This document shows positions 5,227 through 33,296 of a DNA stretch of 34,167 nucleotides, piece after piece. This stretch comes from Actinomycetota bacterium (GTDB taxonomy: Bacteria; Actinomycetota; Acidimicrobiia; Acidimicrobiales; JAHWLA01): NCBI GenBank assembly GCA_019347595.1, contig JAHWLA010000003.1, positions 1 to 34,167 on the forward strand. The letters run 5' to 3'. The notes under the pieces were generated by a model. The model searched no databases, was not told the origin of the DNA, and saw only the letters and a list, made by a program, of their open reading frames with translations. Position numbers and translations under genes: made by a program. How positions within the stretch are numbered: position 1 is the first letter of the stretch; every line of letters starts with the position of its first letter.

Positions 5227-5302
5227 GAAACGGCGCGCAAAGCAGCGCGATCCGTACGCAAGTTCGAGGGGGCGGGCGGCGGAGGGGGCATGATGTCGCC
5301 TC

Positions 5303-23794: not shown

Positions 23795-24397
23795 ATGACT
23801 CCTGCGTTGGACGGCTTGGTGGGGGCGGTGGTGGCCGCGCTGGCGGGCGGCGGGAGCGAGCGCGCCATGTGCGAGGCCATGCGACCCGCCATGGAGGCGA
23901 TGCTGCACACGCCCGACCAGCCGATCCCGGCGTGGGCCTACGAGCCGTGGCAGGGCGAAGCGGTCGGCAACCTGCTCCACGCCGATCCCGAGGGACGCTT
24001 CCACGTGCTCGCCGTGGTGTTCCCGGAGGGGACGTCGAGCGGCGTGCACCACCACGGCTGCTGGGGCGTGATCGGCTACCTCAGGGGCGGCGACGAGGAG
24101 ACCCGCTACGCCGACGGCTCGCTGGACGAGGTGTCGCGCCACGTCTGGCGCCAAGGCGACGTGACCTACCTGCTGCCCGACGAGGGCGAAGGCTGGCACC
24201 GCGTGCGCAACCCGGGGCCGGGCGTCGGCGTAAGCGTGCACGTCCTGTGCCGCCTGCCCGCCGACCACCCGCATGCGTTCTGGGACCGCGCGGCCGGCGA
24301 GGTGGTGCCCTTCCCGTTCGTGGAGGTGGCGCCCGACCGCTGGCGGGCGACGCTCGAAGTGCCACGTTCGTGGTATGGCGATAGCATGACGGTATGA
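23795..24397 (+). CDS. cupin-fold, cysteine-dioxygenase-like protein
   Basis: From ATG 23795. ..FHVLAVVFPEGTSSGVHHHGCWGVIGYLRGGDEE..GDVTYL.....WHRVRN is a metal-binding His pattern of CDO-type cupins. Confidence 0.6.
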   Translation: MTPALDGLVGAVVAALAGGGSERAMCEAMRPAMEAMLHTPDQPIPAWAYEPWQGEAVGNLLHADPEGRFHVLAVVFPEGTSSGVHHHGCWGVIGYLRGGDEETRYADGSLDEVSRHVWRQGDVTYLLPDEGEGWHRVRNPGPGVGVSVHVLCRLPADHPHAFWDRAAGEVVPFPFVEVAPDRWRATLEVPRSWYGDSMTV

Positions 24398-24696
24398 GCG
24401 GAAAACAACGGCTGTCGGCGACCGTCGACCCCGAACTCCTCGTCGCCGCCCACAAGGCGGTCGCGGCGGGTCGCGCCGAGAACGTGAGCGCGTGGGTTAA
24501 CGAGGCCTTGGCACGCCAGGTCGCGCACGACCGTCGCATGGTTGCGCTGGCCGCGTTCATCGGCGACTTCGAGGCCGAGCACGGCGCCATCACCGAAGGC
24601 GAAATGGCGGCGGCAGCCCGGAAGGCCGCGTCGCGAGCCACCGTCGTGCGGCCGACCGGCAAGCCCGCCCGCCGCCCCCGGCGCACCTCGGCGTGA
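24394..24696 (+). CDS. vapB: type II antitoxin (ribbon-helix-helix, VapB-like)
   Basis: 100 aa. QRLSATVDPELLVAAHKAV..NVSAWVNEALARQV has an RHH-like N-terminus. The ATG overlaps the cupin stop (ATGA), and its own stop overlaps the vapC GTG. Confidence 0.7.
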   Translation: MSGKQRLSATVDPELLVAAHKAVAAGRAENVSAWVNEALARQVAHDRRMVALAAFIGDFEAEHGAITEGEMAAAARKAASRATVVRPTGKPARRPRRTSA

Positions 24697-25070
24697 CGCT
24701 TGTGCTCGATGCGGGCGCGCTGCTCGCCATTGAACGAGGCGACCGCGACGTCGTCGCCCTGCTCAAGCGCGGGCTGTTGGCGGGACGCTCCCCACGTACG
24801 CACGGGGGCGTGGTCGGCCAGGTATGGCGGGGCGGCAGCCGTCAAGCGCGTCTGGCGGCATTGCTCCCGGGCGTCGACGTCGTGCCGTTGGACGACGCGC
24901 TGGGGCGTCGGGCCGGCGTGCTACTGGCGCGATGTCGTACTGCGGACGTGGTCGACGCCGCCGTGGTGCTCCTGGCCGACGACGGCGACCTCGTCGTCAC
25001 CTCGGACGTGACCGACCTGCGTCCACTGGCCCAAGCCGCCGGGACCCACCTCGAGCTCGTCCCCGTCTGA
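24693..25070 (+). CDS. vapC: PIN-domain toxin VapC
   Basis: 125 aa. LVLDAGALLAIERGD (first acidic residue), ..VDAAVVLLA..GDLVVTSDVTDL (C-terminal acidic residue). There is a 4-nt GTGA overlap with the antitoxin. Confidence 0.8.
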   Translation: MTLVLDAGALLAIERGDRDVVALLKRGLLAGRSPRTHGGVVGQVWRGGSRQARLAALLPGVDVVPLDDALGRRAGVLLARCRTADVVDAAVVLLADDGDLVVTSDVTDLRPLAQAAGTHLELVPV

Positions 25071-25128: not shown

Positions 25129-26520
25129 TCAGGTGGTCGACGTGCGCTGGGCCCACCAAGCGTCGAGCCGGCGGTAGGCCTCCTCCTCGCCCAGCGGGCC
25201 TTCCTCCATGCGCGCCTCCAGCAGCATGGCCAAGGCCTCGCCCACCGCCCGGCCCGGCCGGATCCCCAGGTGGTCCATCACCTGCTTGCCGTCGAGGTCG
25301 GGCCGCAGCGCGTCGAGCGACTCCTGCTCCCGCAGCCGGGCGATGCGCTCCTCCAACTGGTCCATGCGGGTGGCCAGCTCGGCGGCACGACGCTTGTTCC
25401 TCGTGGTGCAGTCGCACCGCGTCAGCTCGTTCAGCCGGTCCAGCAACGGCCCCGCGTCCCGGGCGTACCGGCGGACGGCGGAGTCGGTCCACCCGCCGTC
25501 CCCCTCGCGATACCCGTGGAAGCGCAGGTGGAGCTCCACCAGCCGTGACACCGCCTCGATGTCGTCGGTGGAGTACCGCATCGCCTTCATGCGGTCCCGC
25601 GTCATGCGGGCGCCGACCACCTCGTGGTGGTGGAACGACACGCCCTCCGGCCCGATCGATCGGGTCTTGGGCTTGCCCACGTCGTGGAACAGCGCCGCCA
25701 GCCGCAGCCACCGGTCCGGTGTGGTGTTCTCGACCACGGCGATGGTGTGGGCCAGCACGTCCTTGTGCCGGTGGATCGGGTCCTGCTCCAGCCCCAGCGC
25801 CGACAGCTCGGGCAGGAACTCGTCGGCCAGCCCGGTGCGCACGAGGAACCACAATCCCGGCCCCGGGTGCTCGACCACCAGCAGCTTGTCGAACTCGTCG
25901 CGGATGCGCTCGGCCGACACGATCTCCAACCGCCCGTGCATCCGCTCCACGGCGCGCACCAGGTCGTCGTCTGGCGTCAGGCCGTACCCCGCCAGGAACC
26001 GGGCCGCCCGCAGCATGCGCAGCGGGTCGTCGGCGAACGACTCCTGGGGCGCCAGCGGCGTGCGCAGCCGGGCCGCGGCCAGGTCGGCGATGCCGCCGAA
26101 GGGGTCGACCAGCTCGAAATCGGGCAGCCGCAGCGCCATGGCGTTCACGGTGAAGTCGCGCCGCGAAAGGTCCGCCTCCACGGCCCCGGCGAACTCCACG
26201 GACGGCTTGCGGGAGTCGGGCTGGTAGGCCTCGGCCCGGTGCGTCGTGATCTCGCACCGCCGCCCCCGCCACAGGCAGCCGATGGTCCCGAACCGCTTGC
26301 CCTGCAACCACACCGCCTCGGCCTCGGGCGCCACCAACGCCTCGATCTCGTCGGGCCGCGCGTCGGTGGTGAAGTCGAGGTCGTCCTCCACTCGCACCCG
26401 GTCGAGCAGGACGTCGCGCACCACCCCGCCCACCAGGTACAGCCGCTTGCCCGCTCGCGCGAAGAGCTCGGCCAACTCGGCCGTCTGGTCGCGCAGCGGG
26501 GCAAAGCGTTCGGGGATCAC
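25129..26520 (-). CDS. cca: CCA-adding tRNA nucleotidyltransferase with HD domain
   Basis: LYLVGGVVRD, DLDFTT (catalytic DxD), RDFTVNAM, and HD part LFHDVGKP. 463 aa. Confidence 0.9.
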   Translation of the reverse strand: MIPERFAPLRDQTAELAELFARAGKRLYLVGGVVRDVLLDRVRVEDDLDFTTDARPDEIEALVAPEAEAVWLQGKRFGTIGCLWRGRRCEITTHRAEAYQPDSRKPSVEFAGAVEADLSRRDFTVNAMALRLPDFELVDPFGGIADLAAARLRTPLAPQESFADDPLRMLRAARFLAGYGLTPDDDLVRAVERMHGRLEIVSAERIRDEFDKLLVVEHPGPGLWFLVRTGLADEFLPELSALGLEQDPIHRHKDVLAHTIAVVENTTPDRWLRLAALFHDVGKPKTRSIGPEGVSFHHHEVVGARMTRDRMKAMRYSTDDIEAVSRLVELHLRFHGYREGDGGWTDSAVRRYARDAGPLLDRLNELTRCDCTTRNKRRAAELATRMDQLEERIARLREQESLDALRPDLDGKQVMDHLGIRPGRAVGEALAMLLEARMEEGPLGEEEAYRRLDAWWAQRTSTT

Positions 26521-26732
26521 AAACCGAGGCTATCGGTCGCCACCAGCGCCGAAGACGGGGATCGACCGGTCAGGACGGGCCATTGTCGTCAACGGTTCCT
26601 GCCCCATGCGGCAGCGCGCGCCTAGTCACAACGGACGGTTTCGTAAACCGCGCTCTATTCACTGACCGTGACCGGCCGATGCACTCGGCGTATCGCAGAC
26701 AGGTACGGGAGCGCGGAGGAGAACGCATCACC

Positions 26733-27371
26733 ATGAAGACGTCTCGCAAGATCCTGTTGTCGATGGGGTCTATCGGAGCAGCGGCGAGCATCGCCGGGCT
26801 CGGAACGTTCGCCACCTTCACCGACTCGGAGAGCGCCTCGCTCACCGTGGACTCGGGAACGGTGAACATCGCCCTCGGCGCCTCGGGCGCCGACAACCGG
26901 ATGAGCGTGGCCGCCGACGGCATGGTGCCGGGCGACACGGCCCAGCGGCGGGTCAAGCTCACAAACCCGACCGGCGCGGACCAGCAGAACCTGGCCTCGA
27001 TCGCGCTGACGACGGCAGCCACCACCAGCTCGCTGCTCGACACCGACGCCACCGACGGCCTGCAGATGAAGATCGAGAAGTGCGGCGGCCTGCTCGGCTG
27101 GCGGGAGTCGGCATCGGCGCCGTACACCTACACGTGCGACCAGCTCAGCGCCGGCGACAACGCCGGCACCCGCACCAGCGTGGTGGCCGAACGGGCCATC
27201 GTCGGCAGCGGCATCGCCATGTCGAACATGGCGGCGCTGACGGTCGGCAGCACCGACGACATGGTGGTCACCGTGCGCCTGCCTTCCAGCGCTGGGAACA
27301 GCTTCCAGGGGCTGAGCTCCACGGTGCAGTTCACCTTCACCGCCACGCAGCGGGCCGCCACCGCCCAGTAA
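26733..27371 (+). CDS. secreted TasA/camelysin-like protein with SipW-class signal peptide
   Basis: ATG 26733 follows GGAGGAG. N-terminus: MKTSRKILLSMGSIGAAASIAGLGTFATFTDSESASLTVDSGTVNI (compare Bacillus ..GTFAyFsD..a.f.sGtldl). ..PGDTAQRRVKLTN.G.. C-terminus GNSFQGLSSTVQFTFTATQ, the family's terminal N..QG....f.F.A.Q block. Confidence 0.7.
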   Translation: MKTSRKILLSMGSIGAAASIAGLGTFATFTDSESASLTVDSGTVNIALGASGADNRMSVAADGMVPGDTAQRRVKLTNPTGADQQNLASIALTTAATTSSLLDTDATDGLQMKIEKCGGLLGWRESASAPYTYTCDQLSAGDNAGTRTSVVAERAIVGSGIAMSNMAALTVGSTDDMVVTVRLPSSAGNSFQGLSSTVQFTFTATQRAATAQ

Positions 27372-27399
27372 CGGCACCCTGACCGCCCACACGGCAGCC

Positions 27400-27423
27400 G
27401 GGCTGCGCCTCCGGGCGCAGCCC
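27400..27423 (+). terminator. GC hairpin between the TasA-like gene and sipW (possible attenuator)
   Basis: gggctgcgcc-tccg-ggcgcagccc has a 10-bp perfect stem. It lies 29 nt after the stop and has no T tract. Confidence 0.3.
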
Positions 27424-27456
27424 GCCTGACGTTCCCAGGAGACACCGATCACAGCA

Positions 27457-28080
27457 ATGCGCACGATCCGAACCATCGCCACGACGACGAGCCGGCTCCT
27501 GGGGCCGGCCTTCGTCGCGCTCTCCCTCGTGGCGTTCGGCGTGCTCGCCGTCGGCCCTCGCACCGGCCGCTACCAGACGGCCACCGTGCTCACTGCCAGC
27601 ATGCGGCCCACCATGCCCGAGGGCTCGATGGTCGTGACCACGCCGGTCGACCCCGCCGACCTGCGCGTGGGCGACGTCATCACCTACCGGAGCCCCGTGG
27701 ACGACCGCCGCATCGTCACCCACCGGGTGGTGGAGATCCACCAGCCCGGCCCCACGCCGATCGTGCGCACCCAGGGCGACGCCAACAACGGCGCCGACCC
27801 GTGGACGGCCCGCCTCAAAGGCGGGGCGGTGTGGAAGGTCCGTGCCGCGGTCCCCAAGGTCGGCTACGCCACCGTCTGGCTGCGCGAGCCGCCGGTCCGC
27901 ACGCTGTTCGTCCTCTTCGTCCCGTTCGTCCTGGCGGCGTTGTGGCTCAAGGACATCTGGGCGGACGACGACGACACAACGGTGCCTCCGCGCTGCCCGC
28001 ACCGGGCCCAGAGCCTGCAGTGCGGCTTCGGCCGGCCGTGGCCGTGGCCGCCCTCCTGTCCCTCGGCGCCTTGGCGGTGA
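27457..28080 (+). CDS. sipW: signal peptidase I, SipW / ER-archaeal type (Ser-His)
   Basis: N-terminal TM, LTASMRPTMPEGS (catalytic Ser box), RIVTHRVVEI (His box), TQGDANNGADP (GDNN box), and a C-terminal TM LFVLFVPFVLAALWL. There is an unusual ~35-aa Pro/Cys/Trp-rich tail. Confidence 0.8.
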   Translation: MRTIRTIATTTSRLLGPAFVALSLVAFGVLAVGPRTGRYQTATVLTASMRPTMPEGSMVVTTPVDPADLRVGDVITYRSPVDDRRIVTHRVVEIHQPGPTPIVRTQGDANNGADPWTARLKGGAVWKVRAAVPKVGYATVWLREPPVRTLFVLFVPFVLAALWLKDIWADDDDTTVPPRCPHRAQSLQCGFGRPWPWPPSCPSAPWR

Positions 28081-28086
28081 GGCAGC

Positions 28087-28515
28087 GTGCGTGAGCGGCG
28101 CTTGCTCGTAGCGGTGGTGGTGACCGTGGTGCTGGCGACCAGCTCGGTCGCCTTCGGCGCGTTCACCAGCGCCCATACGGCGAGCACGACACTCGGCACC
28201 GACGTGCTCACTGCGCCGACCAGCCCGGCCACGGCCCACGGCCCGTGCACGGCGGTGGCGGCGTCGATCGTCGTGTCGTGGACGGCGACCGCCTCGACGT
28301 GGGCCGACGGCTACGAGATCCTCGAGTCCCCGGTGGCCGAAGGCCCGTTCACCCACGTGGCCGCCGTGGACGGGGTGGGCACTACGAACTACACCGTCAC
28401 CGGCCTGTCGTTCGGCACCACCTACCACTACGTGGTGAAGGCCAGGAAGGCGAACTGGCGAAGCAGCCCCACCGCTGTCGTGTCGCACACCACGCTCTCT
28501 GCGCTGTGCCTGTAA
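28087..28515 (+). CDS. small secreted FN3-like protein with SipW-class signal peptide
   Basis: GTG start 6 nt after the sipW stop. MRERRLLVAVVVTVVLATSSVAFGAFTSAHTASTTLG echoes the gene-1 signal. ..IVVSWTATASTWADGYEILES....FTHVAAV...TNYTVTGLSFGTTYHYVVKA is a fibronectin type III pattern. Confidence 0.6.
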   Translation: MRERRLLVAVVVTVVLATSSVAFGAFTSAHTASTTLGTDVLTAPTSPATAHGPCTAVAASIVVSWTATASTWADGYEILESPVAEGPFTHVAAVDGVGTTNYTVTGLSFGTTYHYVVKARKANWRSSPTAVVSHTTLSALCL

Positions 28516-28638
28516 CTAGCCCGATTGCGTTGACACAACCATCCTTTCGGGCCATGCAGTCAACCGCTGAGAGCGCCGAAACCTCTTGAAACGAATGCGC
28601 CGACCCACATCGGACGGAAGCCAGGAGAACGGCACACA

Positions 28639-29196
28639 ATGAACGCTCGCAGAGGATTCGCACTTTTCACCATGGCAGCGGCAGCCGTCGCCGTGGCGCC
28701 CGTGGCCCACGCCGCCCAGACCGCCGACACGACGCTGTCGGTCACCATCGACGCCGGGACGCTCTCGATCTCGGCCCCCATCAGCGCCTCGCTCGGGAAC
28801 GCATCGGCCGCCGTCGGCTCCACAGCCAGCGCCACCATCGGCACCGTGACGGTGTCGGACACCCGGGGCAGCCTGCTCGGCTGGTCGGTGACCGCCGCCA
28901 CCACCACCGCCGCGATGTCCACCGGCGGTGCCACACCCAAGACGATCGCCCTCACGAGCGCCGCGCCGCTGGCGTGGGCGACGGGCGCGGTGGCCGCCAG
29001 CGGCACCAGCCTGCTGGACGGCGTCAGCGCCGGGTCGGGCGGCTTCCTCAACAACACCACGCCGATCGCCGTCGCCGTCTCGGCGCTGGGGTCGGGCGGC
29101 GGCACCTACACCTACACTCCGACGGTGACGCTCACCGTGCCGCCCAACACCGAGGTCGGGACCTACAGCGTGGTCGTGACCCAGACGGTGGCCTGA
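28639..29196 (+). CDS. WxL-domain-like secreted surface protein
   Basis: AGGAGA RBS. Sec signal ..AVAPVAHA/AQ. TLSVTIDAGTLSISAP...IGTVTVSDTRGSLLGWSVTA...GTYSVVVTQTVA is the beta-rich pattern I remember for actinobacterial proteins annotated as WxL domain-containing. Confidence 0.55.
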   Translation: MNARRGFALFTMAAAAVAVAPVAHAAQTADTTLSVTIDAGTLSISAPISASLGNASAAVGSTASATIGTVTVSDTRGSLLGWSVTAATTTAAMSTGGATPKTIALTSAAPLAWATGAVAASGTSLLDGVSAGSGGFLNNTTPIAVAVSALGSGGGTYTYTPTVTLTVPPNTEVGTYSVVVTQTVA

Positions 29197-29204
29197 GCAC
29201 CTCG

Positions 29205-30212
29205 GTGCGCCTTCCCCGTCTGCTGGTCGCCTTCCTGACGCCGGCGCTCGTCTGCCTCACCGGGCTGACGGCGCCGGCGCCGGCGCGTGCGGCGGCCCAG
29301 AGCGGCGAGTTCTCGCTGCGCCCGGTGCGCCCGGCCGACGCCCCCGCCCGCGAGCGCTCCTACATCGTGCGCACGGTCGACGTCGGCAGCGTCTTCACCG
29401 ACCGGCTGGAGGCGGTGAACCTCACCGACGAGCCGCTCGAGCTGGACGTGGCCGCGGTCGACGCCACCGTCCTGGACGACGGCAGCTTTGCCCCGGGCAC
29501 GGCGGCGGCGGCGGAAGGCGCGTGGATCACCGTCACGCCCAGCCGCGTGCGGGTGCCCGCCAAGGGGACAGCCCCGGTGCAGGTGCGCATCACCGTCCCC
29601 GCCGACGCCGCCCTGGGCGACCACATCGCCGCCGTGGTGGCCCAGCGGGCCGACGGCGGGACGACACCGAGCGGGCAGCCCAACGTCGTGCTCCGGCAAC
29701 GGGTCGGCGTGCGCGTCTACCTGACGGTGCGCGGCGACGAGCCGCTGCAGCGCGCCTTCGAGGTCCGCGACCTGCGCTGGGTGGGCGCGCCGTCGGCCCG
29801 CGCCTTCGAGGTCGACATCGCCAACGTGGGCGGCCTCCTCGTCGAACCGGTGGGCACACTGACGATCGAGCGGGGCGGCCTCAGTGCGACGACCGAGCTG
29901 CCGGTACTCGGGACGGTGCCCGTGGGCGAGAGCCGCACGCTGCGGTTCTCGGCAGGCGACACCGAGCTCGAGCCCGGGGCCTACGAGGCCACGCTGACCC
30001 TGCGCGACATCAACGGCGGCCCCGAGCACCAGCGCACCGTGTCGTTCACGGTCGAGGGCGCCGCCGAGCTGGCGGGGCGGGCGTCGAGCGACAGCTCCTT
30101 CCCGTCGTGGCTGGGGGTGGTGGCCGGCGGTGCGCTGGCGGGCGTGGTCTTCGCCCTTTACCGGCGCCGCCGGAACGAAGCCGGAGCCGACGCCCAGCCG
30201 CCTGCCGCCTAG
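29205..30212 (+). CDS. DUF916/DUF3324-like cell-surface protein with C-terminal TM anchor
   Basis: GTG 29205, in frame within track ORF 28974..30212. Signal peptide ..TAPAPARAAAQ. FSLRPV......SYIVRTVDVGSVFTDRLEAVNLTDEPLEL.., AWITVTPSRVRVPAKGTAPVQVRITVP..A.LGDHIAAVV, VGVRVYLTV.G. C-terminal WLGVVAGGALAGVVFALYRRRR. Confidence 0.6.
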   Translation: MRLPRLLVAFLTPALVCLTGLTAPAPARAAAQSGEFSLRPVRPADAPARERSYIVRTVDVGSVFTDRLEAVNLTDEPLELDVAAVDATVLDDGSFAPGTAAAAEGAWITVTPSRVRVPAKGTAPVQVRITVPADAALGDHIAAVVAQRADGGTTPSGQPNVVLRQRVGVRVYLTVRGDEPLQRAFEVRDLRWVGAPSARAFEVDIANVGGLLVEPVGTLTIERGGLSATTELPVLGTVPVGESRTLRFSAGDTELEPGAYEATLTLRDINGGPEHQRTVSFTVEGAAELAGRASSDSSFPSWLGVVAGGALAGVVFALYRRRRNEAGADAQPPAA

Positions 30213-31294
30213 ACCGGCAGCAGCCCGGCCTGCTGGAGGGCGATGCGGAAGTCGTGGGGGTTCGACGCCGCCGCCATGGCGCTGCGCAGGTCGACCATGC
30301 CGTTCTTGAACAGGCCGAACAGGCTCTGGTCGAACGTCTGCATGCCGTAGTACTCGCCCTCGGCGATGACGTTCTCGATCGAATCGTTGAGCGCCTGGTT
30401 GGGGTCGACGATGCGGTCGAACACCCGGCCGGTCATGACCAGCACCTCGACGGAGGGCACCCGGCCCTTGCCGTCGGCCCGCTCCAGCAGCCGCTGGCTG
30501 ACGACGCCGCGCAACGACGAGGCCATCGACAGCCGGATCTGCTTCTGCTGATGGGGCGGGAAGAAGTCGACGATGCGGTTGACCGTCTCCACCGCGTTGG
30601 TGGTGTGGAGCGTCGACAGCACCAGGTGGCCGGTCTCGGCGGCGGCCAACGCCGCCCACACCGTCTCCGGGTCGCGCATCTCGCCGATGAAGATGACGTC
30701 GGGGTCCTGGCGCAGCACCCGCTTCATGGCCATGGAGTAGTCGCGGGTGTCGGTGCCGATTTCCCGCTGGTTGACGATGGCCTTCTTGTCCACGTGCAGG
30801 ACCTCGATGGGGTCCTCGATCGTCACCACGTTCACCGCTTGTGTCTCGTTGATGTGGTCGATCATGGCGGCGATCGTCGTGGTCTTGCCCGCGCCCGTCG
30901 GGCCGGTGACGAGCACCAGGCCGCGGGGCTCTTCGGCCAGCCGGCGCACCACCGAGGGCAGGCCCAGCGACTCGAAGCTGGGGATGCCGGGCAGCACCCG
31001 CCGGAACACCAGCCCTACCGAGCCGCGCTGGCGGAAGACGTTGACCCGGAACCGCCCCAGGCCCGACACGCTGAGCGCGAAGTCGGCCTCGGCCGTCGTC
31101 ACGAACTCGTCGGCCCGGTCCTTGGGCATGACCTGGAACGCCATGCGCTCGGTATCGGCCGGTGTGACGCGGTCGAACGGCGCGGCGATCAGGTGACCGT
31201 CCACGCGCACGTGCGGCGGGGAACCCGCCTTCACATGCAGGTCGGACCCCCGCTGCTCCACGGTGTACTGAAGCAGTTCGTTCAAGTCGAGCAC
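30209..31294 (-). CDS. pilT: PilT-type (twitching-motility) hexameric ATPase, orphan
   Basis: The start is trimmed to GTG 31294 (LDLNELLQYTVEQRGSDLHVKAGSPPHVRVDG). The longer start would overlap the divergent dehydrogenase. Walker A GPTGAGKTTT, Asp box TIEDPIE, Walker B VIFIGEMRD, His box LVLSTLHT. Confidence 0.85.
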   Translation of the reverse strand: MLDLNELLQYTVEQRGSDLHVKAGSPPHVRVDGHLIAAPFDRVTPADTERMAFQVMPKDRADEFVTTAEADFALSVSGLGRFRVNVFRQRGSVGLVFRRVLPGIPSFESLGLPSVVRRLAEEPRGLVLVTGPTGAGKTTTIAAMIDHINETQAVNVVTIEDPIEVLHVDKKAIVNQREIGTDTRDYSMAMKRVLRQDPDVIFIGEMRDPETVWAALAAAETGHLVLSTLHTTNAVETVNRIVDFFPPHQQKQIRLSMASSLRGVVSQRLLERADGKGRVPSVEVLVMTGRVFDRIVDPNQALNDSIENVIAEGEYYGMQTFDQSLFGLFKNGMVDLRSAMAAASNPHDFRIALQQAGLLPV

Positions 31295-31346
31295 TCGAAG
31301 CAATGTCGGCAAAGACGGGGGCGATCCTGAGCGGCGTGCAACACTC

Positions 31347-32621
31347 GTGCCCGTGACGAGGCCCACGAGGCGGGTGACGGTGATCGGCCAGGGCTACGTC
31401 GGCTTGCCCGTGGCGGTGCGGGCGGCCGAGGCCGGCTACTCCGTCGTCGGCTTCGACGTCGACGAGAGCCGGGTGAAGCGGCTGGCCGCCGGGCAGTCGT
31501 TCGTGGAGGACGTGCCGTCGGAGGCGTTGCAACCGCTCCTCGACTCGGGCGCCTACCAGGCGTCGGCCGATCCGGCCTCGCTGGACGGCTTCGACGTCGC
31601 TGTGATCACCGTCCCCACCCCGCTGCGGGAAGGCAACCCCGACCTCAGCTACATCGAGGCGGCCGCCGCCGCGCTGGCCCGTTACCTGCGGCCGGGCGCC
31701 ACCGTGGTCCTGGAGTCGACCACCTACCCGGGCACCACCGAGGAACTGGTCGGCCCCATCCTGGAGGACGGCTCGGGCCTCGTGCCCGGCGACGACTTCT
31801 CGCTCGGCTACAGCCCCGAACGGATCGACCCGGGCAACACTGTGTGGACGTTCACCACCACGCCGAAGGTCGTCTCCGGCATCGACGCCCGTTCGCTGGC
31901 CGCCGTGCAGGCCTTCTACGACACGCTGGTGGAGCGCACCGTTCCCGTCCGCTCCACCCGGGTGGCCGAGCTCACCAAGCTGCTGGAGAACACGTTCCGG
32001 CACGTCAACGTGGCCCTGGTCAACGAGCTGGCCATGTTCGCCAGCGACCTGGGCATCGACGTGTGGGAGGCCATCGACGCGGCGTCGACCAAGCCGTTCG
32101 GATTCATGCGCTTCACTCCGGGGCCGGGCGTGGGCGGCCACTGCCTGCCCATCGACCCCAGCTACCTGAGCTGGCGGGTGAAGCGGGCGCTGGGCCAGAG
32201 CTTCCGCTTCGTGGAACTGGCCAACGACGTGAACGACCACATGCCCGACTACGTGGTGCAGCGGGTGACGGTCGCGCTCAACCGGCGCAAGCTCGCCGTG
32301 AACGGCAGCCGGCTGCTGCTGCTGGGCCTGGCCTACAAGCGCAACACCGGCGATGCGCGGGAGTCGCCCGCCGTGGTGGTGGCCGAGCGGCTGGCGGCGC
32401 TGGGCGCCGAGGTGCGGGCCGCCGACCCCCACGTGGTGGAGGGACGGGTCAGCGAACGGGTGCGCCGAGTGGAGTGCACGGCCGAGGAAGTAGCCGCTGC
32501 CGACCTGGTGATCGTGCTCACCGACCACGACGACTTCGATTACGAACTGGTTGCGGGCGAGGCCGTGGGGGTACTGGACACCCGCCATCGGGCGGTCGGC
32601 GAGCGGGTCGAATATCTGTAA
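31347..32621 (+). CDS. nucleotide-sugar dehydrogenase (UDP-Glc/GDP-Man dehydrogenase family, UDP-N-acetyl-hexosamine type)
   Basis: VTVIGQGYVGLPVA (Rossmann), EST.YPGTT, catalytic-Cys block GPGVGGHCLPIDP, and AYKRNTGDARESPA. The start is either GTG 31347 or GTG 31374. Confidence 0.85.
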   Translation: MPVTRPTRRVTVIGQGYVGLPVAVRAAEAGYSVVGFDVDESRVKRLAAGQSFVEDVPSEALQPLLDSGAYQASADPASLDGFDVAVITVPTPLREGNPDLSYIEAAAAALARYLRPGATVVLESTTYPGTTEELVGPILEDGSGLVPGDDFSLGYSPERIDPGNTVWTFTTTPKVVSGIDARSLAAVQAFYDTLVERTVPVRSTRVAELTKLLENTFRHVNVALVNELAMFASDLGIDVWEAIDAASTKPFGFMRFTPGPGVGGHCLPIDPSYLSWRVKRALGQSFRFVELANDVNDHMPDYVVQRVTVALNRRKLAVNGSRLLLLGLAYKRNTGDARESPAVVVAERLAALGAEVRAADPHVVEGRVSERVRRVECTAEEVAAADLVIVLTDHDDFDYELVAGEAVGVLDTRHRAVGERVEYL

Positions 32622-32661
32622 ACAACCAACGGCAATATCCGATGGCGGCATCCCGTGGTAA

Positions 32662-32689
32662 TTGACTCCGGGGTGCCGGTGGGTAAGCA
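32662..32689 (+). promoter_or_regulatory. candidate sigma70-type promoter for the LPXTG gene
   Basis: TTGACT (32662-32667), 16 nt, TAAGCA (32684-32689), in an AT-richer intergenic stretch about 45 nt upstream of the ATG. Confidence 0.3.
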
Positions 32690-32732
32690 TTGCCACTTAC
32701 GGACTGAATTTGGCGGAAAGGAACCGGAGACG

Positions 32733-33296
32733 ATGGGACGACACCTGGTACGCGCCCTGGTAGCAGCACTGCTGCTGCTACCCGCGGGGGCAGCCGTGGC
32801 ACAGCAGGCGCCGGAGAACAGCAGCCGGTGCCCCCAGACCGAAGGTGCAGGCACATCCGGGCAGTACCCGCCCAACCGAGGCGCCCTGCAGCTCAGCCGC
32901 AGTGCCGCTCGACCGGGCCAGCCCGTCACAGCGAGGGGCTGCGGCTTCCGGCCCGCCTCGACCGTCAACGTCGACCTCGTCATGGGCTCGCAGGTCACGC
33001 GAGTCGGCACAGCGACGGTTGGCGCCGACGGTGGGTTCGAGCTGACGTTCAACGTCCCCGCCAACGCCCCCGTCGGCGACCACACAGTGGAGGCCACCGG
33101 TGTCGACCCGGCGGGCGACGTGCGAGTCCTGTCGGCCACGCTGCGGGTCATCGGCGGCGAGCAGGGCCGCGACCTGCCCCGCACCGGCTCCGACTCGACT
33201 GCCCCGCTGGTGACGGCGGGCGCCGGGCTCGTTCTCCTGGGCGGCGCGGCCGTCGTCGCGGCTCGGCGTCGTCGGGCTGCACGCGTCGAAGCCTGA
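32733..33296 (+). CDS. small LPXTG-type sortase-anchored surface protein
   Basis: ATG 32733 follows GGAG. Signal peptide LVAALLLLPAGAAVAQQ, an Ig-like beta-rich body, and C-terminal LPRTGSD + hydrophobic APLVTAGAGLVLLGGAAVVAA + RRRRAAR. Confidence 0.75.
   Translation: MGRHLVRALVAALLLLPAGAAVAQQAPENSSRCPQTEGAGTSGQYPPNRGALQLSRSAARPGQPVTARGCGFRPASTVNVDLVMGSQVTRVGTATVGADGGFELTFNVPANAPVGDHTVEATGVDPAGDVRVLSATLRVIGGEQGRDLPRTGSDSTAPLVTAGAGLVLLGGAAVVAARRRRAARVEA

Follow-up and report, generated by a model that had tools for sequence, protein, structure and literature searches.

Two probably separable surface modules, a TasA-type fibre operon and a minimal WxL/WxLIP-type gene pair, adjoin at one syntenic site in Acidimicrobiales

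The stretch of DNA described here (the window) comprises 34,167 nucleotides (nt) of contig JAHWLA010000003.1, from an Actinomycetota bacterium of the order Acidimicrobiales, and the system in question is a run of five co-directional open reading frames (ORFs) on its plus strand, g1 to g5, at positions 26733-30212. An earlier interpretation made from the letters alone (the sequence-only reading) had placed five co-directional genes in this interval and joined them in a single surface apparatus. All five ORFs were recovered, with every peptide string that it had quoted present in their products, and the joining was not sustained. With a probability of roughly 0.7, the locus consists of two surface modules that can be separated and that local synteny has kept side by side, the result of one historical juxtaposition and not one new machine. 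Module A (g1, g2 and g3) has the anatomy of a TasA-type fibre operon, and g4 and g5 form a WxL/WxLIP-type pair. The adjacency is read as juxtaposition with conserved synteny because each module also occurs alone and because the combination is limited to one clade and one site.

26733..27371, plus strand: g1, TasA/camelysin-family protein of 212 amino acids (aa), ATG start at 26733, SipW-type leader (..GLGTFATFTDSESASLTVDSGTV..)
27457..28094, plus strand: g2, SipW-type signal peptidase I (archaeal/endoplasmic reticulum (ER)-type), in-frame stop at 28080, tail ..AVAVAALLSLGALAVRQRA ending at 28094
28087..28515, plus strand: g3, secreted Fn3 protein of 142 aa with a putative TasA-like leader and first strand and two conserved Cys residues
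28639..29196, plus strand: g4, small WxL-like secreted protein of 185 aa, Sec signal ..VAHA/AQ
29205..30212, plus strand: g5, WxLIP homolog of 335 aa, GTG start, Sec signal, two Ig-like domains, C-terminal transmembrane (TM) helix and Arg-rich tail

The evidence that carries this reading comes from gene neighbourhoods in other genomes. The metagenome scan with the SipW alignment gave 80 loci, 30 of them with at least 1.5 kb of sequence downstream of sipW, 21 with at least 3 kb downstream and 14 with at least 3 kb upstream. The g1-like and sipW genes are adjacent in nearly all of the 80 loci, and in 22 of them sipW is followed by a g3-like gene, usually overlapping it. Not one of the 30 informative loci contains a match to the g4 or g5 family, and relaxing the threshold to E<1 brings up noise only. 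The g1-g2-g3 unit also stands by itself: at locus L013 (64, 58 and 45% identity, respectively) it is followed by FtsH-like and epimerase-like ORFs, with a g1 as close to that of the window as the g1 of the composite loci, and it is found alone in further loci.

The g4-g5 pair is likewise present without module A, in at least six contexts (L003/L004, L005, L006, L007, L089/L090 and L092). The pair is located directly after a TP_methylase gene in L089/L090 (g4 56% and g5 47% identical in L089) and beside a TetR gene in L006 and L092; in L005 the g5-like gene has a 390-aa WxL-like partner, and in Streptomyces yanii (L007; UniRef name 'DUF916 domain-containing') yet another one. A small WxL-like gene immediately followed by a WxLIP-like gene is observed in L003, L006, L089 and L092. 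The gap between g4 and g5 is 8 nt in the window, L001 and L002, and 4-10 nt in L089 and L092. Locus L003 occupies the same site as the window, between the genes for a CCA-adding enzyme (76% identical) and a PilT-like ATPase (91% identical), and contains the g4-like and g5-like genes without g1, g2 and g3.

All five genes together were found in one Acidimicrobiales clade only, always at the same site. In L001 and L002 (g5 57-60% identical) they lie between the same CCA-enzyme and PilT genes, and L008 and the short contig L010 show the same arrangement at the same site; the relatives of g5 come from Acidimicrobiales metagenome-assembled genomes. A linkage of sipW to WxL/DUF916 genes therefore exists within this clade and was found nowhere else in the survey, which, together with the pair-only contexts, speaks against the single apparatus of the sequence-only reading. 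Between the window and L001, L002 and L008, the surface genes are 57-71% identical and the flanking CCA-enzyme and PilT genes 85-93%, so the surface genes appear to evolve much faster than their flanks. Because the flanks are even better conserved, the kept adjacency within the clade tells no more than general synteny does.

The DNA between the two modules was inspected for signals shared by these loci.

28516..28638, plus strand: spacer between g3 and g4, 123 nt, with ACTAG, TCGGGCCATGCAGTCAACC at 28547-28565, GCGCCGAAAC and the ribosome-binding site (RBS) AGGAGAA

The conserved blocks of this spacer, ACTAG(T), GAAAC, TCGGGCCATGSAGTCAACC and GTGCCGAAA, are common to L001, L002, L008, L010 and the pair-only locus L003, and the motif is unique within the window. 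The spacer before g4 measures 96-123 nt among the loci (6342-6437 in L001, ~6190-6349 in L003). Because the blocks also precede g4 in L003, this 5' region belongs to the pair and not to the fibre operon. It is presumably the own promoter and 5' untranslated region (UTR) of g4-g5, and the blocks may represent a promoter of the extracytoplasmic function (ECF) type or a regulator site. Positions 28516-28638 have no Rfam match and fold no better than shuffled sequences (z -1.16), so an RNA element is unsupported.

Another conserved feature is located within module A.

27395..27428, plus strand: GC-rich stem-loop directly 3' of g1, 11-bp core GGGCUGCGCC..GGCGCAGCCC, without a U-tract

The minimum free energy of this hairpin is -40 kcal/mol (z -2.96). 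Hairpins of 13-17 bp are placed equivalently in L001 (~5238-5272), L002 (~5236-5268), L008 and L013, with different sequences; the position is kept and the sequence is not, the stem being maintained by different bases. The element is likely a partial terminator or an mRNA stabiliser that would set the subunit ratio, probably keeping the major subunit in excess. Operons that over-produce a major fibre subunit usually have a hairpin in this place.

In searches with profile hidden Markov models (HMMs), g1, g2 and g3 pass the cut-offs of their families, and g4 and g5 are recovered at the family level only. The g1 protein matches Peptidase_M73 (PF12389) with 49.1 bits (cut-off 22.5), residues 9-209 covering profile positions 6-194 of 196, and its leader (residues 11-44) matches the cognate_SipW model TIGR04088 with 24.6 bits (cut-off 19), which agrees with the TasA-like protein with a SipW-type signal expected from the letters alone. 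It is presumably the major fibre subunit. The g2 protein scores 79.5 bits with sigpep_I_arch (TIGR02228, cut-off 51.85) and 22.2 bits with Pfam Peptidase_S26, slightly under the cut-off of 22.9. The catalytic residues S48 (SMRP), H89 (THRV) and D108 (GDAN) are all present in the window protein and invariant across 27 homologs (alignment A5), as anticipated for a Ser-His peptidase of the ER/archaeal type. With the Bacillus SipW equivalog NF046067 the score is 57.2 bits, the cut-off being 190. On these scores g2 is the same type of enzyme as SipW, outside the Bacillus orthologue group.

The g3 protein was said to repeat the special signal in front of a fibronectin module. The module is present (33 bits with fn3, cut-off 25), and in the alignment of the g1 and g3 families by hhalign (probability 66%, E 5.7e-5) the leaders are in register; the curated signal is not recognised, as TIGR04088 gives no match with the window protein and matches one of 18 family members, at E 0.11. 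The g3 relatives, from 22 loci, share the leader form A-x-A-x-F-x4-S-x4-TVS-x-ATL. We presume g3 to be a SipW substrate and an accessory (TapA-like) fibre component. Single-sequence searches of the PDB with g1 and g4 returned nothing usable. In many other actinobacterial SipW loci the Fn3 accessory is replaced by a ~400-aa two-repeat protein with the leader 'AFAGFNSA..GGP..', and one or two additional TasA-like paralogs come after it (L027, 8440-9711 and 9297-10385; L064, 8353-9561, 9570-10205 and 10209-10772). The accessory slot of actinobacterial SipW operons is variable.

As read in the window, the gaps from g1 to g5 are 85, 6, 123 and 8 nt, which reproduces the range of 6-123 nt given before. 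The 6-nt gap between g2 and g3 is probably an artefact, because the homologs of g2 continue in the frame of the ORF 27801-28094. Close homologs (~90% identity) end with '...DDDTSVP..APA....ALLSLGAFT.RQRA'; the g2 of the window reads after '..DDDDTTVPP' the unrelated 'RCPHRAQSLQC...', and the conserved tail ..AVAVAALLSLGALAVRQRA is found in the frame of the said ORF. From the tails of P0100 and P0103 and a three-frame translation, an apparent -1 frameshift was placed near 27988-27992 (27985-27995 region). The cause may be an assembly error or a recent mutation, and the third hydrophobic segment may be truly truncated. Neither the catalytic domain nor the second TM helix is affected, both being encoded upstream of this position. 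With the frame restored, g2 would extend to 28094 and share 8 nt with g3, as it does in L001, and such an overlap would favour translational coupling.

In the case of g5, the match to WxLIP_PGBD/DUF916 (PF06030) amounts to 16 bits, under the cut-off of 27.3, and 20 of 32 members of its family match this model (best E 9.4e-12). The family profile finds the experimentally determined structure of EfmWxLIP1 from Enterococcus faecium in the PDB (9i1y_A, E 5.8e-12), with profile positions 32-295 on chain residues 2-273, covering both domains. The AlphaFold2 (AF2) model (predicted local distance difference test, pLDDT, 88) has strands over residues 36-283, arranged in two beta-sandwich domains, and a helix at 301-328; its best Foldseek matches are 9i1y/9i25 ('WxLIP ... 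bound to long WxL'), with E ~1e-14. The Pfam model DUF3324/HBD is not matched by g5. The segment aligned to NQIDKxxxYFDLK, the conserved N-terminal motif of WxLIP proteins (PMC10599100), is PADAPARERSYIVRTV (..RERSYIVRTV..), which has lost the NQ and DK and retains the Pro, the aromatic-hydrophobic core and the spacing. Family profile and model together indicate a full-length WxLIP homolog, in which a DUF916/PGBD domain and a further, HBD-like Ig-like domain precede a TM helix at the C-terminus, in line with the DUF916-like protein with a C-terminal anchor that had been recognised by eye. The 335-aa product is identical to the public gene call for the contig (P0001). After WxLIP, the next-best folds for g5 are the periplasmic chaperones YadV, CfaA, CupB2, SafB, Caf1M, FimC and CsuC (E ~1e-9 to 1e-7); the word 'chaperone' is absent from the WxLIP paper (PMC10599100).

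The g4 protein, described earlier as an ordinary Sec signal with a WxL-like body, scores 19.9 bits with the WxL model (PF13731), under the cut-off of 25. The description finds agreement in the family-level profiles: 19 of 23 close relatives match WxL (below threshold), with no other Pfam family consistent. Searched against 1.84 billion representatives, the g4-family profile gives 1171 clusters at E<=1e-3, and PF13731 is matched by 41 of 92 sampled representatives (best E 3.4e-15). The matches include many small proteins of ~180 aa and large ones of 450-1430 aa that are matched at the C-terminus, which is the small-WxL/large-WxL architecture; by cluster-member look-up almost all are metagenome proteins. 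One match is a protein of 1428 aa from Candidatus Kerfeldbacteria (P0357). The WxL domain is defined by two Trp-x-Leu motifs, the distal being Yxxx(L/I/V)TWxLxxxP (PMC5817068), and g4 does not show two of them. The proximal motif reads LLGW(S)V (LLGW-x-V), with an invariant Trp and with the Leu exchanged for Val; the distal one, in register, reads Y-SVV-V-T-Q-T-V, with an invariant Gln and without the trailing xxxP, and the protein ends there. The AF2 model has a pLDDT of 84.8, and the top 50 Foldseek matches are chaperone-usher pilins (CfaB, CsuA/B, FimA and Caf1), archaeal cannulae and glycosidase domains, all weak (E 3e-3 to 0.3). The family-profile search of the PDB gave nothing usable for g4. 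On the profile and motif evidence, g4 is best classified as a divergent, motif-degenerate small WxL-type protein.

Both modules have described counterparts. Like the tapA-sipW-tasA operon of Bacillus subtilis (PMC9674648, PMC10151520), module A encodes a Peptidase_M73/TasA subunit that bears a SipW-type leader, its own archaeal/ER-type peptidase and a second, secreted accessory protein, whose leader may be related. Here, however, tasA comes first and sipW second, the third gene encodes an Fn3 protein of 142 aa and not TapA, and the peptidase, which carries an additional hydrophobic tail at the C-terminus, is far below the equivalog model of Bacillus SipW (57 against 190 bits). The host, too, is different, a high-GC member of the Acidimicrobiales in which fibre polymerisation is putative; a census has recorded TasA homologs in Actinobacteriota (PMC9245690). 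The BsaA/SipW matrix system of Clostridium perfringens (PMC11580942) also pairs a SipW-type peptidase with a TasA-like protein of the matrix, and a type IV pilus-family ATPase gene lies near the five genes of the window; here, however, this PilT-like gene is convergent to g5 and occurs just as well at L003, which has the pair alone.

A WxL cluster (Hassan et al. 2023) or Csc cluster (Siezen et al. 2006) contains, in the space of a few genes, one or more WxLIP and two or more WxL proteins, small as well as large, often with a small LPXTG protein (PMC10599100, PMC1534035). The g4-g5 pair resembles these clusters, and the EfmWxLIP1 structures 9i1y/9i25, in having a small WxL gene beside a gene for a protein with a signal peptide, a DUF916/PGBD domain, an Ig-like domain and a TM helix. 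It differs in having one WxL gene, without a large WxL or an adjacent small LPXTG gene, so that it lies outside the published definition (the g4-family HMM gives a single match in the whole window), and in the replacement of the distal Trp-x-Leu by the invariant Thr-Gln-Thr-Val. The host is also different. WxL/DUF916 clusters have been described in the open literature searched almost only from Lactobacillales and Bacillales (PMC10599100, PMC9772566, PMC5817068), and more than 91% of the known WxL sequences are in Firmicutes (PMC9772566, PMC10599100). Given the g4-profile matches, WxL-type domains may be far wider spread than the Firmicutes-centred literature says. Chaperone-usher pairs (PapD-like chaperones with CfaB, CsuA/B or Caf1) are comparable in that a partner strand completes an incomplete beta-sandwich, as it would in g4-g5, and in the fold matches of g5 and g4. 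Here there is no usher or outer membrane and g5 is membrane-anchored, and the likeness is at the fold level, with 9-16% identity and weak matches of g4 (E>=3e-3).

These comparisons suggest how each module may work. The peptidase g2 would remove the special leaders of g1 and, probably, of g3. Mature g1 would polymerise outside the cell by donor-strand exchange, by analogy with the TasA fibres of Bacillus (PMC9674648) and with archaeal AbpA (PMC9245690), and g3, with its putative g1-like first strand, Fn3 domain and Cys pair, could be a minor starter, cap or adhesin similar to TapA, for which strand complementation has been described (PMC10151520). In the pair, the C-terminal helix would anchor g5 in the membrane, and one of the strands of g5 may complete the sandwich of g4, giving a complex displayed on the surface. 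Insertion of a WxLIP strand into WxL was predicted for Enterococcus (PMC10599100), and the title of PDB entry 9i25 suggests a WxLIP bound to a long WxL. The chaperone-like fold predicted for g5 and the weakly pilin-like fold predicted for g4 fit such a strand-insertion mechanism without proving homology.

Several observations weigh against a simple juxtaposition of two modules so classified. The survey consists of metagenomic contigs, many of them short, and of exact-protein look-ups, and the species-genome scan with the narrow g5-family alignment (A4) gave one locus, the composite L008, which makes for a thin census. The five genes stay together within the clade despite their divergence to 57-71% identity. 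No recognisable terminator lies between g3 and g4, and shared transcription or a functional link within the clade is possible. The leader of g3 is outside the curated SipW-signal model, and with the g4 model Foldseek gave no match at E<=0.001, the top 50 containing neither the WxL chain of 9i25 nor TasA. The alternative put forward by the sequence-only reading is a single composite apparatus encoded by one operon, in which the anchored WxLIP/WxL complex nucleates or tethers a SipW-matured TasA-like fibre. Such an apparatus would account for the common strand, the short gaps without a terminator-like element between g3 and g4 and the arrangement kept in the window, L001, L002, L008 and L010, and it could find a structural basis in the mature N-terminus of g4 (TLSVTIDAGTLSI), which resembles the first strand of g1 (ASLTVDSGTVNI). 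We nevertheless consider it unlikely, given that the linkage is restricted to one clade and one syntenic site, with the SipW loci and the pair-only contexts pointing the other way, that the pair-only L003 retains the same upstream sequence, and that the flanks are equally syntenic, so that the conserved adjacency adds no weight. The bodies of g1 and g4 have no detectable homology; a deep relationship between the two was rejected, as their hhalign alignment (probability 33%) covers only the signal peptide and the first strand.

Less likely again is that this clade has recruited the WxLIP/WxL pair to anchor the TasA-like fibre at the cell surface or to prime it. The g5 protein, chaperone-like and tethered to the membrane, would then present g4, and the N-terminal TLSVTIDAGTLSI strand of g4 would imitate the donor strand of g1 and insert into the g1 subunit that is first or last in the fibre. 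Were this true, the locus would encode a counterpart of chaperone-assisted donor-strand assembly that works in a monoderm and without an usher, and two surface systems so far regarded as unrelated would be connected. A co-regulated surface island, with separate structures expressed together as a biofilm or adhesion programme by read-through from g1-g3 or by a shared regulator, is doubtful but deserves more credit than either form of joint machine. It is consistent with the co-directional genes, the missing terminator signal in the 123-nt spacer and the fast evolution of the surface proteins of both modules relative to the flanks (57-71% against 85-93%), whereas the conserved region 5' of g4 also serves a pair-only locus and the strong hairpin after g1 would already partition transcription. 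Finally, g4 and g5 could be generic Ig-like or beta-sandwich surface proteins with chance Pfam matches. The single-sequence scores under the gathering cut-offs, the absence of the distal WxL motif in g4 and the failure of the g4 model to retrieve the WxL chain of 9i25 would be explained in this way, but the g5 profile matches EfmWxLIP1 over both domains, EfmWxLIP1 is also the top fold match, WxL is the sole consistent Pfam family for g4 (41 of the 92 representatives, among them large proteins that carry it C-terminally), and a conserved gene pair, one member small and WxL-like and the other WxLIP-like, is the hallmark of the family (PMC10599100). A chance resemblance is therefore very improbable.

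If the two-module reading is right, two poorly studied Gram-positive surface systems extend into uncultured high-GC Actinomycetota, with no new machine. The novelty is modest and consists of a minimal, motif-degenerate actinobacterial WxL/WxLIP pair beside a widespread actinobacterial tasA-sipW-fn3 operon. The minimal pair and the more than 1000 clusters matched by the g4 profile suggest that the two-protein complex is the core functional unit and that the 'WxL' motif is dispensable. The tasA-sipW-fn3 operon is common in soil Acidimicrobiia and relatives, which points to candidate biofilm fibres in abundant uncultured bacteria. The three states found at or near one syntenic site (both modules, the pair only and the fibre operon only) offer a natural comparison for interaction tests.

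The surroundings of the five genes comprise the following features.

25129-26520, divergent from g1: CCA-adding/poly(A)-polymerase-family gene, upstream flank
26521..26732, plus strand: spacer that separates g1 from the divergent gene for the CCA-adding enzyme, RBS GGAGGAG at ~26715-26721, GC ~0.59-0.66
30209-31366, minus strand: PilT-like T2SSE ATPase gene, convergent to g5 and overlapping its stop by 4 nt
32655-33296, plus strand: LPXTG protein, secreted, 213 aa, LPRTG sortase motif, Gram_pos_anchor 21.2 bits

The upstream spacer (26521-26732) presumably serves the TasA-like gene as promoter and 5' UTR. A sigma-70 consensus was not found in it, the consensus scan for promoters and terminators over 26000-31500 was empty, and the Rfam scan of 26300-30400 at E<=1 gave no match. 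The GC content over the locus is uniform (~0.70-0.74). In the ranking of 100-nt windows for AT content, those starting at 28511 and 26681 are the 4th and about the 10th, respectively, so that the intergenic DNA setting off the five genes is among the AT-richest of the contig and not, as had been stated, the richest. The first place is taken by the window starting at 32611, which overlaps the upstream spacer and the start of the LPXTG gene.

The PilT-like gene is at the same position and 90-93% identical in L001, L002, L003 and L008. It was rejected as a member of the system, being equally present, at 91% identity, at the pair-only L003; no other pilus genes are beside it in the window. It is followed downstream by a gene of the UDP-glucose/GDP-mannose dehydrogenase family and then by the gene for the LPXTG protein, the only such protein in the window, which was rejected as a CscD-like member, since it lies at a distance of 2.4 kb, with two unrelated genes in between, and is absent from L001-L003. 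On the other side of the locus, at 24394-24696 and 24693-25070 on the plus strand, two small overlapping ORFs of 100 and 125 aa, without a Pfam match at E<=1e-3, are antitoxin/toxin-like by their arrangement.

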